A DNA stretch of 64,000 nt from Candidatus Cloacimonadales bacterium (GTDB taxonomy: Bacteria; Cloacimonadota; Cloacimonadia; Cloacimonadales; JAFGVF01), in contig CAXXJV010000001.1 of assembly GCA_963663475.2 (NCBI GenBank), forward strand, positions 1,184,001 through 1,248,000, written 5' to 3'. Below the pieces are notes generated by a model. That model was not told where the DNA came from. It was given only the letters and a program-made list of their open reading frames with translations, and searched no databases. This document shows, piece by piece, positions 14,320-60,202 of this stretch (position 1 is its first letter; every line of letters begins with the position of its first letter). A program made the translations under genes and the position numbers.

Positions 14320-14497
14320 GGCTCAAGTTCAAGTCTGGTGGGAATAATATAGGAAAATGAGAATATTTCATTACTATATTGATTCATCAAAAATCCCTGA
14401 AAGGGATAAAATAATTTAGCCCAGGGTAAGATGCTAAAAGTATCGCAAGCCTGGGTAATGATGACTTGCCCAAAGGTCTACTGCACTATTTGTGTTA
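14320..14497 (+). mobile_element. Repeat family B / REP-like composite, empty allele, joined to a family A right end
   Basis: GGCTCAAGTT...aatccctgaaaggg...agcccagggt...cctgggt...gcccaaag, then tctactgcactatttgtgtta. Aligns with 54801-54973 and reverse 58033-58276. Confidence 0.8.
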
Positions 14498-18442: not shown

Positions 18443-18639
18443 TAAACCCAATAATGCAGTAGACCTCTGAGAATAGCAGAATCTTCTTTTGCAAAAGTAA
18501 GCTACATAGTTTTCAGGAATATATATATTATATGCCTTCGAATTCTGTATGCTATTTTGGTAAAAGAATCTGCCCTCTTCACCTGTTATACCTAGTTTTA
18601 GCGAAGTATTACTAAAGCTATACTGCACTATTATGGATA
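18443..18639 (+). mobile_element. MITE family A, long copy
   Basis: aaacccaataatgcagtaga ... tactgcactattatggata; collinear with 11453-11650. Confidence 0.85.
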
Positions 18640-54800: not shown

Positions 54801-54973
54801 GGCTCAAGTTCAAGTCTGGTAGGAATAATATTGGTAAATGAGAATATTTCATTACTATATTGATTCAAAAATCCCTGACTTGTGGGGCGTAGCTTTAGCG
54901 AAGATTCAATGTATCGCAATCCTGGGGAATGATGGCTAGCCCAAAGATATTACCCTGTAAGGGTTTAATAAAA
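54801..54973 (+). mobile_element. Family B / REP-like composite with a single hybrid 30-bp insert (54878-54907)
   Basis: Aligns to 14320-14476 and reverse 58033-58276, but lacks the segment between the two inserts. Confidence 0.85.
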
Positions 54974-56078: not shown

Positions 56079-56981
56079 ATGATAAAAAAACTAGACCAAA
56101 TGGTTGATCAGGTTAAGAAGTTAGGAAAGAAATTTAAGATTGCTGTAGCTTATGCTCAGGATTCAAATACCATTGGTGCTATAAGTCAGGCTATTGAAGA
56201 TGGCTTCATAGAAGCAATAATGATAGGGGACAAGACTAAAATTATTGAGGTTGCTCAAGAAGCTAATATAAATCCAGAGATTTTCCAAATAATAGATGTT
56301 AAGGATGAAGTAGCTTCTATTGAAAAGGCTGTGGAAATGGTTAGAAATGACCAAGCTGATGTCCTTATGAAAGGCCTTTGCGGAACTGACAAATTCTTAA
56401 GAGGAGTTATCAATAAAGAGAAGGGACTCTTACCTCCTAAAGCAACTATGACTTATGTATGTGCCTTAGAAATTCCTAAATACCATAAATTGCTTTTTGT
56501 TACAGATACTGCTGTTCTTCCTTTCCCAGATTTAAAACAAAAGACAGCTATGTTAAAGTACTCAGTTGCAATGGCCCACAGATTTGGAATTGAAAAACCA
56601 AAAGTAGCTCTTATTTCAGCTGCCGAAAAAGTAAGTCCTCATTTTGATTCCCATAATGATTATACTCAGCTGTGTATGATGGCTCAAAGAGGTCAAATAA
56701 AAGACTGTATTGTTGATGGACCTTTAGATATCTTCTTAGCCTGTGATCAAGAAAGCGTTAAAATTAAAGGGGTTCCAACTCCAATTAATGGAGACGCAGA
56801 TGTCTTGCTTTTCCCTTCCTTAGAAGCTTGTAATTCCTTCTATAAAGGTCAAATGCTGTGGGGTGGAGCTGAATTAGCTGGACTTATTCAAGGAACGACT
56901 AAACCTGTAGTTGTTATGTCTCGTTCAGAATCACCAAAATCTAAGTATTATTGTATTGCCTTATCTTGTTTAATGGTGTAA
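56079..56981 (+). CDS. ptb: Phosphate butyryl/acetyltransferase (Ptb family), paralog 2
   Basis: VLMKG, FVTDTA, KPKVAL, VDGPLD, ADVLLFP, MSRSES. Confidence 0.88.
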   Translation: MIKKLDQMVDQVKKLGKKFKIAVAYAQDSNTIGAISQAIEDGFIEAIMIGDKTKIIEVAQEANINPEIFQIIDVKDEVASIEKAVEMVRNDQADVLMKGLCGTDKFLRGVINKEKGLLPPKATMTYVCALEIPKYHKLLFVTDTAVLPFPDLKQKTAMLKYSVAMAHRFGIEKPKVALISAAEKVSPHFDSHNDYTQLCMMAQRGQIKDCIVDGPLDIFLACDQESVKIKGVPTPINGDADVLLFPSLEACNSFYKGQMLWGGAELAGLIQGTTKPVVVMSRSESPKSKYYCIALSCLMV

Positions 56982-57006
56982 GATAAAAACTGAACATATT
57001 TTCTAA

Positions 57007-57035
57007 AAGGGCGAATTGATATTCGCCCTTAATTT
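57007..57035 (+). terminator. Terminator after the ptb pair
   Basis: aagggcgaat-tgat-attcgccctt. Confidence 0.7.
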
Positions 57036-57076
57036 ATTGCTCTCTTTGGGTTTATGTTAACATCTAGTTCTTTGGC

Positions 57077-57183
57077 ATCTGCGTAAACACGGGATTCCAG
57101 CCCGCGTTTACGCAGATTACAAGCGGTTACGGGATTGGGTCGCGGGATTCCAGCCCGCGTTTACGCAGATGACAAGTGGTTAC
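57077..57183 (-). repeat. REP-like 53-bp unit array (family C), left cluster
   Basis: Two copies of cgggattccagcccgcgtttacgcagat 53 bp apart; the first sits in a 41-bp imperfect palindrome (57077-57117). Confidence 0.85.
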
Positions 57184-57529
57184 ACAGCTTATTCACCACA
57201 CATTTTAACCTGAATAGTGCATTTGGGTAAAACCCATACAGAGTAAGATCTGTTAGAGGATATCATATTTGGAACGGAAATTATCTTAATCAGAAATATA
57301 CAACCCTTGCTAGCAATTCTTATAGGCATTATAAAACTGTCCAATGGACTAGATCACCAGTTTGTGTAAAAAGAGATAAAATATCCCTACTTTCACTAAT
57401 TACACTAAGATGTGAATTAAATAATAGTAGAAATTCCATAAAATCCCAGAAGAGGATAAATACCTCAGCTTATGGTAAAAGCCTGAAAGGCTTGCCACAA
57501 TGGGTAATGAAATGATGTATCTAATAAAG

Positions 57530-57658
57530 TGTAATCCTGTATTGATTTGATAAACGTTGACTCCTTTCATATTATCTTCTAGAGTTTTCTATTTTTTATC
57601 TAGGAAACTGTACCAGATTAAACTGCCATATGTATACCATTTTAAACTGCCATCTACA
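57530..57658 (-). mobile_element. Probable IS21-family left-end remnant with the first codons of istA
   Basis: Minus strand TGTAG-ATGGCAGTTTAAAATGGTATA-CAT-ATGGCAGTTTAATCTGGTACA (TG end plus tandem sub-repeats); ATG at 57570 reads MKGVNVYQ then (+1 shift) SIQD. Confidence 0.5.
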
Positions 57659-57668
57659 GTACTTTATT

Positions 57669-57801
57669 ATCTGCGTAAACGCGGGCTAGAATCCCGCGAC
57701 CCATTCCCGTAACCACTCGTCTTCTGCGTAACCGCGGGCTAGAATCCCGCGACCCATTCCCGTAACCACTCGTCTTCTGCGTAACCGTGGGCTAGAATCC
57801 C
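57669..57801 (+). repeat. REP-like 53-bp tandem array (family C), right cluster, 2.5 copies
   Basis: ctgcgtaa(a/c)cgcgggctagaatcccgcgacccattcccgtaaccactcgtc recurs at 57671, 57724 and 57777 (partial); inverted relative to 57077-57183. Confidence 0.92.
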
Positions 57802-57869
57802 TGCCGGCTCTAACTGGGAAAGCGGGCATCCCTGCCCGCGCCAAGCTTTTCAAGCTTGGTTTTGTGTGG

Positions 57870-57977
57870 AATCCCCAAAAGGGGATAAATAGTTTAGCCC
57901 AGGGTAAATTCCTGAAGGGAATGCAACCCTGGGTACTGGTGATGAAAAACAAAGCCTAACCCTGAAAGGGTTAAATA
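57870..57977 (+). repeat. REP-like multi-hairpin element (ccctgaaaggg / agcccagggt...accctgggt type)
   Basis: atccccaaaaggggat; agcccagggt-aaattcctgaagggaatgca-accctgggt; aaccctgaaagggtt. A degenerate relative lies at 57441-57510. Confidence 0.75.
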
Positions 57978-58032
57978 ACATCATATATACCATAGACTTA
58001 TTATAATCCCAAATAATGCATTATTTATCATT

Positions 58033-58276
58033 TTATTAAACCCTTACAGGGTAATATCTTTGGGCTAGCCATCATTACCCAGGGTTGCGATACTTTGAAT
58101 CTTCGCTAAAGCTACGCCTTCACAAGTCAGCATCTTACCCTGGGCTAAATTATTTTATCCCTTTGAGTCTTCGCTAAAGCTACGCCCCACAAGTCAGGGA
58201 TTTTTGATGAATCAATATTCTTATGAAATATTCTCATTTTCCTATATTATTCCCACACCAGACTTAAACTTGAGCC
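58033..58276 (-). mobile_element. Family B / REP-like composite carrying two micro-insertions (58097-58127 and 58165-58194)
   Basis: Reverse complement is collinear with 14320-14476 except for two inserts acttgtg(ggg/aagg)cgtagctttagcgaaga(c/t)tc. Confidence 0.88.
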
Positions 58277-58352
58277 TTTTAGAATCTACTAGTTAGAAGA
58301 TTTAGTAACTGAAAACACTGATAAGAAAAAAAGAGATTCTTTACCCTAATTA

Positions 58353-58431
58353 GGAGTGACGGGAGTTGCTCACGGAGTAGCGACTTCCGACACTCTTTCG
58401 CCCGAAGTCCCTTGCCTACGGCTGAGGAACT
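58353..58431 (+). other. GC-rich structured segment (18-bp stem with G.U pairs plus further hairpins); candidate ncRNA or REP-type element
   Basis: ggagtgacgggagttgct / agcgacttccgacactct pair with 14 Watson-Crick pairs, 3 G.U and 1 mismatch; followed by ccttgcctacggctgagg. Confidence 0.4.
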
Positions 58432-58462
58432 CCGGTCTGTGTGTGAAGGGGAATGTGAACTG

Positions 58463-58792
58463 TCTTCTTTCTCCCCGTCTCCCCGTCTCTCTATCTCCCC
58501 GTCTTTGAGCCGAAAGGCGAAAACCTTCTATCTTCTCTCTTTTTTTGCTTTTAGCAAAAATTAATTCGAGAAATTCGTCTTAATTCGTGTTAATTCGTGT
58601 AAACAATCTTCTTTCTCCCTATCTCCCCGTCTCTCTATCTCCCCGTCTTTGAGCCGAAAGGCGAAAACCTTCTATCTCCCCGTCACCCCGTCTCTCTATC
58701 TCCCCGTCTTTGAGCCGAAAGGCGAAAACCTTCTATCTCCCCGTCACCCCGTCTCTCTATCTCCCCGTCTTTGAGCCGAAAGGCGAAAACCT
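58463..58792. repeat. 61-bp direct repeat (4 copies, the last 3 in tandem) built from ctccccgt octamers and a gcc-gaaa-ggc hairpin
   Basis: Hairpins at 58509, 58653, 58714, 58775; (t/a)aattcg 10-bp-period repeats at 58562-58600 between copies 1 and 2. Confidence 0.95.
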
Positions 58793-58804
58793 ACCCATTG
58801 AAAT

Positions 58805-60202
58805 CTAACTATTCAATTCCTCATAAATTCTTTCAAAGATATATCCTACATGAACACGATTAAGTAAGTCAATCTTATTAACATCAATTTCAATAACTTT
58901 ACCTTGGTGGAATCCATATTTAACTACATTAATAGCATAATCTTGATACCAACGATTAAGATTTTTTATTTCAGCTTCAGACCACCCACCTTCAATTTCC
59001 ATTTCTCGTCCTCTTTGCTGAATCCTTTGCCAAGCTAAACGAGGATTTCCGACAAGTTGAATAATTAAATCAGCACTTGGTAGATTGTTATTTACCTTAT
59101 GGAATTCTGTTGTTAATCTTTCTAATTCAAGGTCTGTTAAGAGTCCATCATGGTGGAACTGGTGACAAAAAACAAGTAAATCTTCTGGAAGTGACCTATC
59201 TTTGACATAAGATTTATCTCCTTTTTTACCTTGTAATCTTTGTTCAGCTCTCATTTTCAAGAAGTGAAGTTGCAAATCAAAGCAGTATTTCTTTTTATCT
59301 GAGAGAAACTTTTCTAGGAGAGGATTTTCTTCAGGCTTTTCATAGAGTCCTGTTAAATTTAATGATCTTTCCATAATAGCAGTAATTGTAGATTTTCCAA
59401 GACCAACATTACCCGCAATCGTAATCAATTTAGGGTTTTGCTTAAGGAAAGCTTCAAGTTTTTTCTCAATATCAATTGCCTTAAGAGTTGCATCTGTTTC
59501 TGGTAGTTTAACCCATTTTCTGATGCCAGGACTGGTAATTCTTAAAGATAATTCACTAATTCTTTTAGCCATTAAGTCAATAGCCTTTTCAACAAAGACA
59601 TCTTCTGGAAGATCATTAGTTTCCAAGATTAAAACAGGGCATTTGACATAATTTTCAATATACTCTTCATAGAGGTAGTTTAACTGTTTTAGATATGATT
59701 CAGGAATTAGTTTTTCAGATTCTCTTCCGCGCTTAGCAATACGTTCTATCAGAGTAGGAACATCAGCTCGGAGATAGACTATTATATCTGGTTCATGGAA
59801 ATTTTCAGTCATTAAATGATAAGTTCTTTGATAAGCTTGAAATTCAGCTTCTGTCATATTTCCCAATATTCTTTGAGCTTTGCCAAAAATATGGTAATCT
59901 TCAGCAAGGGTTCTATCTTCCAGAATAATACCTCGGGAACTATCGATTCTTTTCTGTCTTTCTAACCTTCCATTAAAGAATTCAATCTGAGCCATAAAAG
60001 CATTTTTTACAGGGTTTTGATAAAAGGCATCTAAGACTAAAGGGTTGAATGTTTCATCGAAAGTATGAATATCAGCATCTTGACTATCTCCAGGGAATAG
60101 GGCTAATAATTTATTTTTATAGGCTTGTGATTTTGCTTTTGTAACTAAAGTAGATTTTCCCACACCAATATTTCCAATAATACCTATTCTTAAATTTTCC
60201 AT
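58805..60202 (-). CDS. Tandem (two-domain) deoxynucleoside kinase
   Basis: Two complete dNK domains: GNIGVGKST...EDRT...RIAKRGRESE and GNVGLGKST...KDRS...RIQQRGREME. Confidence 0.9.
   Translation of the reverse strand: MENLRIGIIGNIGVGKSTLVTKAKSQAYKNKLLALFPGDSQDADIHTFDETFNPLVLDAFYQNPVKNAFMAQIEFFNGRLERQKRIDSSRGIILEDRTLAEDYHIFGKAQRILGNMTEAEFQAYQRTYHLMTENFHEPDIIVYLRADVPTLIERIAKRGRESEKLIPESYLKQLNYLYEEYIENYVKCPVLILETNDLPEDVFVEKAIDLMAKRISELSLRITSPGIRKWVKLPETDATLKAIDIEKKLEAFLKQNPKLITIAGNVGLGKSTITAIMERSLNLTGLYEKPEENPLLEKFLSDKKKYCFDLQLHFLKMRAEQRLQGKKGDKSYVKDRSLPEDLLVFCHQFHHDGLLTDLELERLTTEFHKVNNNLPSADLIIQLVGNPRLAWQRIQQRGREMEIEGGWSEAEIKNLNRWYQDYAINVVKYGFHQGKVIEIDVNKIDLLNRVHVGYIFERIYEELNS

Follow-up and report, generated by a model that had tools for sequence, protein, structure and literature searches.

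The window analyzed here, a 64,000-nucleotide stretch of contig CAXXJV010000001.1 from a Candidatus Cloacimonadales genome, carries a micro-element of 30 to 31 nt that is precisely present in, or absent from, the single-stranded loops of other hairpin repeats, and elsewhere the loop of the element itself. Longer-stemmed versions of this hairpin are located approximately 30 to 600 nt upstream of a gene coding for a stand-alone GIY-YIG nuclease of about 80 aa, sometimes on both sides of it, and this adjacency holds in the source genome, in its relatives, in other phyla, and in metagenomes. The insert is very probably a discrete, structured unit of about 30 nt that has repeatedly entered hairpin loops, and a hybrid copy in the window is, with the same confidence, a recombinant of two inserts.

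The element was recognized in a first-pass annotation through a repeat of about 160 bp, here called host repeat A, which carries two hairpin loops and occurs in several states: empty, filled at one or both loops, or as a recombinant hybrid. Rereading of all three places in the window (Table 1) confirmed the empty, doubly filled, and hybrid states as originally described, together with the claim that the insertion junctions are seamless, with no target duplication and an ambiguity of 1 nt. No direct repeats surround the insert in the window copy. The empty copy at 14320-14476 has tccCTGAAAGgga at site 1 and gatgCTAAAAGtatc at site 2. The host A copy that holds the hybrid at 54878-54907 lacks the 37 nt between the two sites, and a genome scan revealed a second hybrid insert on contig C2. 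The hybrid copy is the product expected from recombination between the two inserts of one doubly filled host repeat. The core of the unit, CGTAGCTTTAGCGAAG, has four matches in the window when up to two mismatches are allowed, three of them exact, compared with an expectation of 0.02; none of 100 shuffles reaches four.

The same states recur throughout the source genome (3.30 Mb, 33% G+C, two contigs designated C1 and C2). In an anchored scan, site 1 of host A is empty in 41 copies with the exact sequence CTGAAAG and in 5 one-letter variants, and is filled in 3 copies, while site 2 is empty in 38 CTGAAAG copies and 5 variants and filled in 6. All four filled and empty combinations of the two sites are present. 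These counts rest on tighter scans, as an initial anchor scan and a fuzzy motif scan were noisy. In the closest relative (G004), a flanking gene is only about 87% identical, and the matching intergenic region is about three times shorter and does not contain this host A copy. Among public short-contig runs, a joint that skips 31 nt between 58095 and 58127 appears in 4 of the 4 examined (from 20 listed), and can stem from empty paralogues because such short contigs break at repeats and mix paralogues. At least four repeat families are packed into the intergenic stretch of the window at 56981-58805. The first-pass annotation had also proposed looking for in-frame copies in coding sequences. A scan of C1 open frames gave no evidence of the element living in coding sequence here: among 60 core-like copies on C1, 2 lie within open frames of at least 150 aa, both with two mismatches and one of them probably a chance match.

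The consensus of the unit, yTTG-YCCKC-CGTAGCTTTAGCGAAG-GMGGR (4+5+16+5 = 30 nt), has the size of the window insert. It consists of a 5′ box (C)TTG, a 5-bp arm, the sequence CG(T/A)AGC, a short stem or tetraloop, the sequence GCGAAG, and the complementary arm. In the source genome, the arms have drifted toward A+T (TGGGG/ACTCA and TGATA/TATTA). The four central bases of the core vary (TTTA, CTTG, TTCA), and longer versions carry an inner stem with compensatory changes (TCGC-TTCG-GCGA, CTCC-AAA-GGAG, ATC-TTTA-GAT). Given this variable center and the compensatory variants, the conserved part is CG(T/A)AGC ... GCGAAG arranged around a variable stem-loop.

Pairing of the arms is evident when copies are chosen without regard to them. 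Among 107 distinct copies picked by the core alone, the five arm positions pair in 84-90% of copies versus 46-69% with shuffled partners, a level that none of 200 shuffles reaches, and a sixth position pairs at background. In an alignment of 108 rows, of which 4 are from the window, 92.5% of the cells are paired versus 77.2% in shuffles (0 of 500 reaching the observed value), and both sides have changed in 143 cells versus 50.5 in shuffles. The covariation score is 0.386 compared to 0.127 for shuffled partners (again 0 of 500), and it is at most 0.108 when the partners are slid. No Rfam family covers the hairpin in a covariance-model search of the window and three loci at the gathering threshold, or in a search of 20 loci from other phyla at E values up to 1. 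A literature text search for the core string found it in neither orientation.

Two metagenome-assembled genomes (MAGs) carry the element within itself. A Bacteroidales MAG (locus L172) and a Sedimentisphaerales MAG (locus L179) each have one complete unit lodged within the central loop of a second unit of like orientation, giving the arrangement CGTAGCTTT[unit]AGCGAAG. The Sedimentisphaerales pair folds as a hairpin inside a hairpin, and its nested junction is unambiguous: the unit begins with CTTG and ends one base past the arm. Because this copy starts with CTTG, the junction in host A is better read as CTGA^AAG, with the unit being CTTGTGGGG-core-ACTCA. The documented targets are CTGA^AAG, CAC^TAAAG or CAC^CAAAG, and GCTTT^AGC in the element's own loop. 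The target originally proposed, CTG^AAAG, is indeed seen at host A and in a second genome of the genus (G003), but other words are documented as well, and the sites are better described as loops. The targets have in common a hairpin loop whose 3′ side is rich in purines, and no shared word.

A second host, repeat B, is more abundant than host A in the source genome. Among its approximately 230 copies, 183 are empty, with 0-1 nt at the center (cttcac|T/Caaag), whereas 39 on C1 and 6 on C2 are filled with a 30-nt insert of the form CTGTGATA-core-TATTA(C/T), allowing up to three mismatches. Both subfamilies of host B include filled copies. Host B is co-oriented with the direction of replication as judged by GC skew, with 160 of 194 C1 copies placed with the same strand leading; this bias does not differ between filled (32 of 39) and empty (128 of 155) copies. 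Host B is similar at its center to the reverse-complemented core (GTAGAGCTTTAGTGAAG versus GTAGCTTTAGCGAAG). We considered whether host B might be an old, reverse-oriented member of the element family and rejected this, as its flanks do not pair as the arms do.

Further hosts are found in relatives. In G003, units of the form ACTTGTGAGGG-core-ACTC occupy CTG^AAAG or CTG^AAGG sites within the loops of another, distinct hairpin repeat, and one host B copy in the same genome carries a form with TGAG/CTCA arms. In a genome from another genus (G008), 10 copies lie in yet another repeat, 3 of them forming a tandem array of 125-128 nt. A variant core, CATAGCTTTAGCGACG, with GGTTGGC/GCCACC arms is present at five positions in the source genome, between open frames of 224 aa and 494 aa, which may be phage-related, in a multi-copy region several kilobases long. 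This variant is also found in a Bacteroidales MAG (G041:C4:383609), where it precedes a GIY-YIG gene by 95 nt.

With up to one mismatch, the core is present in 15 of 41 related genomes; every one of the 6 other species in the genus has it (9 to 126 copies), as do 10 of 11 other family members, and copy number ranges from 0 to 126 among genomes of one family. In a scan of one prokaryotic genome per species, the exact 16-mer was found in at least 123 stretches, compared with about 280 expected by chance. Since this count is no more than the chance expectation, it has no meaning alone, and it is the flanking arms that give the matches meaning. Among the matches listed, the core is repeatedly bracketed by complementary arms (CCCGC/GCGGG, which is the commonest pair, CCCTC/GAGGG, TCCGC/GCGGA, and CACTT/AAGTG) and preceded by (c)TTG. 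According to the record titles of these listed matches, they derive from Patescibacteria, Verrucomicrobiota, Planctomycetota, Bacteroidota, Alpha- and Gammaproteobacteria, Acidobacteriota, Elusimicrobia, Nitrospirota, Dependentiae, and others. In each of five genomes traced from these loci there are 7-33 core-like copies, versus 0-6 matches for a control pattern read backward.

The unit is also present at 59 viral-contig loci, where 54 of 62 copies have at least four of the five arm pairs, and a search of a plasmid collection returned just two weak partial matches. Exact cores with A+T arms (ATATTC/GAATAT, and ATACTC/GAGTAT in L353) occur in giant-virus MAG contigs from IMG/VR (L339, L351, L353, and L367). 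A Babeliaceae MAG contig (L071) carries three head-to-tail 31-nt units beside a masked stretch. In the Bacteroidales MAG G041 (loci L167-L192), the element is embedded among tandem 7-8-nt repeats of the gtcttgcaa type; the cyanobacterial repeats called SDRs, discussed below, are associated with heptamer repeats.

These observations bear on two explanations that do not involve mobility of a discrete unit. The first, named in the first-pass annotation as what would refute its proposal, is that host A contained the 30-mer ancestrally and lost it by deletion from the empty copies; this is scarcely credible. Each host A site does have its own insert variant, and the filled copies of one site may share a single event. 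However, empty copies exceed filled ones by approximately 7-15 to 1, no direct repeats flank the insert that could account for so precise a deletion, and the unit is not confined to host A, being found also in other host repeats such as host B, in related genomes, and in other phyla. It is very improbable that the unit is a functional RNA or protein-binding hairpin maintained by selection, with its presence and absence resulting from recombination between repeat copies. Such a role would fit the near-invariance of the 16-nt core across phyla, the covarying arms, and the potential of the core, on a reading of its sequence, to form a GUA/GAA internal loop closed by G-C pairs. A hairpin of this kind would not be expected to escape a match to any Rfam family, to lie in both orientations relative to the neighboring gene, to be nested inside itself, to be inserted in the loops of three different selfish repeats, and to vary from 0 to 126 copies within one family. 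The proposal of a discrete, non-autonomous micro-element that enters REP-like hairpins with precision is supported.

No mobilizing gene was found in the window, where neither Y1 nor GIY-YIG genes are present, in agreement with the first-pass annotation. That annotation favored a Y1/RAYT-type enzyme and listed GIY-YIG among the genes to check, and it is the GIY-YIG gene that exhibits linkage to the element. The source genome has a single small stand-alone GIY-YIG gene, which codes for a protein of 79 aa and lies just downstream of the tmRNA gene (locus L206, G000:C1:1903768-1906983). At positions 687-1500 of this locus, 2.5 tandem units of about 155 nt separate the two genes; the first two units carry an extended-core hairpin, and the third has other sequence in its place. 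The only two GTAGC-N10-GCGAAG sites in the genome, both CGTAGC-ATC-TTTA-GAT-GCGAAG, are located 248 and 403 nt upstream of the small GIY-YIG gene. The genome has 27 other core sites, each with a 4-nt loop, and no site matches when the halves are reversed as a control.

The arrangement recurs beyond the source genome. Among the 13 closest homologue loci in relatives, the strict motif is present within 700 nt upstream in 7, and a one-mismatch motif in two more. In G007, the motif upstream of the gene is one of just two core-like copies in 3.4 Mb; this genome with 2 copies has the small GIY-YIG gene, unlike the copy-rich genomes from the genus of the source organism (G001, G004, and G005). Directly upstream of the homologues in G008 (L219, 1890-2158) and G006 (L216, 1891-2420) are tandem arrays with a period of 125-129 nt, each unit of which holds one core-type hairpin with paired arms. 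A metagenome sample of 80 loci with GIY-YIG homologues at 42-68% identity (193,032 bases) contains 54 strict motif matches versus 2 for the reversed-halves control, and 27 of the 63 loci having at least 300 nt of upstream sequence carry the motif no more than 700 nt upstream. These hairpins occur in both orientations, typically 26-81 nt upstream on the same strand and 98-135 nt upstream on the opposite strand, and sometimes on both sides of the gene. In comparison, 19 control loci, including Y1 loci (4 from this genome and 8 from other genomes), hold one strict motif match in total. In other phyla, a core-type hairpin lies 95 nt from a homologue with 46% identity in a Bacteroidales MAG and about 460 nt from a Maricaulis homologue with 42% identity and an in-frame TGA.

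Table 1. Coordinates of the micro-element copies, host repeats, and candidate partner genes. Positions without a contig label are those of the window; G000 denotes the source genome.
Feature	Position	Strand	Description
Micro-element copy 1	58165..58194	-	30 nt, ACTTGTGGGG-core-ACTC (equally well 58164-58193, reading CTTG...ACTCA); occupies the GAA loop of TCCCT/AGGGA, the first host A hairpin, which folds with a 3-nt loop
Micro-element copy 2	58097..58127	-	31 nt, ACTTGTGAAGG-core-ATTC; occupies the terminal loop of the longer, second host A hairpin, which is closed by CCCAGG/CCTGGG
Host repeat A, doubly filled, REPIN-like	58033..58276	-	Inserts at 58194->58165 and 58127->58097
Host repeat A, both sites empty	14320..14476	+	CTGAAAG and CTAAAAG
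Hybrid micro-element	54878..54907	+	Left part of copy-1 type (GTGGGG), right end of copy-2 type (ATTC), then site-2 flank
Diverged micro-element	18583..18612	+	CTGTTATA-CCTAGTTTTAGCGAAG-TATTAC, within a host repeat B copy
Small stand-alone GIY-YIG gene	C1:1905268-1905504		79 aa, the sole one in the genome; Pfam GIY-YIG, E 2.4e-16
Y1 gene, REPIN/RAYT-like (L014)	G000:C1:2619005-2619743 (at 2619189)		About 150 aa
Y1 gene, REPIN/RAYT-like (L015)	C1:1463968-1464789 (at 1464160)		About 150 aa
Core variant CATAGCTTTAGCGACG	G000:C1:5934, 1373801, 2699633; C2:4684, 313495		GGTTGGC/GCCACC arms; L001 surrounds 5934

The closest published analogue of this arrangement appears to be the Ssn system, as judged by the GIY-YIG domain, the protein size, and the adjoining hairpins rather than by an assignment to the Ssn family (cd10448). 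Ssn proteins are GIY-YIG enzymes of about 94 aa whose genes are flanked by hairpin repeats; the enzymes cut single-stranded DNA next to these repeats, and the identity of the loop is dispensable (Chenal et al. 2025, Nat Commun 16:2388, PMC11893778). To the extent that the available parts of that article allow comparison, the likeness extends to a single-domain gene of roughly 80-100 aa with cognate hairpins adjoining it, sometimes on both sides, to dispersal of the gene-adjacent hairpin in many genomic copies over a wide range of phyla, and to a GC-rich stem of about 5-7 bp with a short 5′ box ahead of it. The commonest arms found here, CCCGC/GCGGG, equal the inner NTS stem. There are also differences. 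The published SRM pattern, HGTCWYN(0-2)YYVSBRHN(0-5)WNVSBRGN(0-2)RNCYNB, allows a loop of up to 5 nt, whereas the present unit has the 5′ box (C)TTG and a "loop" that is a conserved sub-hairpin of at least 16 nt. Moreover, the precise filled and empty sites and the loop nesting observed here are not reported in the parts of PMC11893778 available to us. In Supplementary Data 4 of the same article, all five Maricaulis species in the table have a cd10448 homologue with an SRM enrichment of only 1.4-1.8-fold, which would fit a different cognate motif without proving one. The 79-aa protein is 42% identical to the product of a Maricaulis gene that may be the cd10448 homologue of the table.

By analogy with the Ssn/NTS system, the unit described here may be the dispersed form of the recognition hairpin of a family of mini GIY-YIG nucleases, a proposal to which we assign an even chance. 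A small GIY-YIG nuclease would bind the folded hairpin in single-stranded DNA and cut beside it, probably at the (C)TTG boundary. The dispersed 30-mers, such as the copies in the window, would then be solo copies of the nuclease recognition hairpin. They might be released or copied as short single strands which, as DNA is replicated or repaired, would become fixed into the loops that folded REP-like hairpins expose. Because a GIY-YIG enzyme hydrolyzes DNA and makes no covalent intermediate, end joining is assumed to occur by host ligation or template switching. Viral carriage is a candidate route by which the element crosses phyla. A bolder version of this proposal is that a 30-nt hairpin, nearly identical in sequence across more than ten bacterial phyla and on phage and giant-virus contigs, is among the smallest mobile DNA elements known. 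It would transpose into single-stranded hairpin loops, its own included, driven by a distinct clade of single-strand GIY-YIG nucleases of about 80 aa through a cut-and-host-join or cut-and-copy process that involves neither a DDE enzyme, nor an HUH enzyme, nor a recombinase. We regard this version as possible but doubtful.

Several observations weigh against a nuclease-driven process. The joining step is not explained by a nuclease that acts by hydrolysis. The strict motif is upstream of the gene at just 27 of the 63 metagenome loci and 7 of the 13 loci from relatives, and the gene-proximal hairpin in the source genome has no complementary outer arms. In G001 (126 copies), G004 (79 copies; a complete genome), and G005 (23 copies), the only GIY-YIG match is of UvrC size. 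Since these richest genomes are devoid of the small gene, it is not needed for the persistence of copies, and copy number does not track it. Likewise, no homologue of the GIY-YIG gene lies within 600 nt of the unit at the 59 viral loci. An NCBIfam search of the 79-aa protein gave no match, and its best solved relative in the PDB is UPF0213 BH0048 (E 1.2e-8). The site-1 element with its flanks does not match the SRM pattern on either strand, and the whole genome has just 3 SRM matches. Cloacimonas acidaminovorans has no ssnA homologue listed in the published table (PMC11893778, Supplementary Data 4). By energy alone, the window copy folds weakly (-1.9 kcal/mol, z 0.42), and the strand bias of host B adds no sign of strand-specific insertion.

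Two other routes of movement must be weighed against the GIY-YIG proposal. One possibility, which we judge to be quite unlikely, is that a Y1/HUH transposase of the IS200/IS605 or RAYT type moves the 30-mer by single-strand "peel and paste." Such an enzyme would account for seamless insertion into single-stranded hairpin loops with no target duplication, and for the replication bias of host B noted above. The core also starts with GTAG, the conserved foot of REP sequences bound by RAYT. In addition, the genome has four Y1_Tnp genes, two of which are flanked by inverted modules of 69-75 nt related to host A, with 96% identity between the arms; the second of these genes (that at C1:1463968-1464789) seems altered at its C-terminal end. 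Because this hairpin module flanks two Y1 genes in inverted orientation, host repeat A itself is REPIN-like and fits the REP/REPIN-RAYT kind, which bears out the earlier description of the host hairpins as REP-like. For the micro-element, however, the association with Y1 genes fails. Y1_Tnp is found in 32 of 41 relatives regardless of whether they carry the element, and two genomes with 13 and 15 Y1_Tnp matches (G009 and G013, respectively) have 0 copies. No Y1 match was obtained in a complete Maricaulis genome that holds 15 core-like copies, and the single strict motif match among the 19 control loci was obtained although 12 of them are Y1 loci. Furthermore, the ends of IS200/IS605 elements need two hairpins, whereas the 30-nt unit has one.

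The other possibility is that no dedicated enzyme is involved, and that the insertions result from template switching or copying errors at stalled, folded hairpins or from an unseen enzyme. The GIY-YIG cassette would then be a favored landing place for the element or would use the hairpin for its own regulation. This explanation, which we hold to be unlikely, draws on three of the observations above: loop structure, not a common word, sets the targets; the small GIY-YIG gene is missing from high-copy genomes and viral contigs; and the nuclease is unable to ligate. It is less easily reconciled with the recurrence of the same boundaries and core in unrelated contexts and in phyla where there is no local template. 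Also, the hairpins are found at typical distances and in both orientations upstream of GIY-YIG genes that share 42-68% identity, a pattern that is cassette-like rather than that of random landing.

Comparisons with other small repeats further distinguish the unit. The small dispersed repeats SDR1-8 of Nostocaceae are repeats of 21-27 nt that are proposed to be mobile and have no known enzyme, and SDR5 inserts between nucleotides 3 and 4 of HIP1 (via PMC4390886, PMC5861425, and PMC2884548); according to PMC5861425, SDRs are reported only from Nostocaceae. An SDR in a cyanobacterial host was considered for the window and dismissed, since the source genome, in which T9SS sorting domains occur, is not cyanobacterial. 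Like an SDR, as far as the available parts of these sources describe them, the present unit is a very small and precise insert in otherwise conserved sequence, including other repeats. By the same descriptions, and not by sequence comparison, it differs in being 30-31 nt, in being found across phyla and in viruses, and in having a candidate partner gene. It resembles REP and REPIN-RAYT systems in being a short hairpin repeat with a GTAG word, with no target duplication, and with a tendency to cluster with other repeats. Unlike host A, though, it neither flanks nor co-occurs with Y1 genes, its GTAG word lies inside the hairpin rather than at the foot, and it is a single 30-nt hairpin that lands in other hairpins. 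Classical miniature inverted-repeat transposable elements are similarly non-autonomous, multi-copy, and intergenic, but the unit is 3-10 times smaller and has neither terminal inverted repeats of the transposase type nor a target-site duplication.

Ssn-type nucleases were described only in 2025, and the available parts of that report leave open how their hairpin repeats multiply (PMC11893778). The filled and empty sites in three host repeats, the self-nesting, and the 30-nt unit with defined ends provide direct sequence evidence on hairpin multiplication. They extend the idea of a nuclease paired with a hairpin to a second, different, and far more widely shared motif. Very small mobile repeats, so far described for Nostocaceae, thus exist across bacteria and in viruses. 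This case also offers a concrete set of protein and oligonucleotides for testing, and a small nuclease whose single-strand site is a 30-nt structure could serve as a tool. If nuclease-driven transposition proves true, the hairpin repeats of Ssn-type nucleases as a whole would be mobile elements, not static binding sites.

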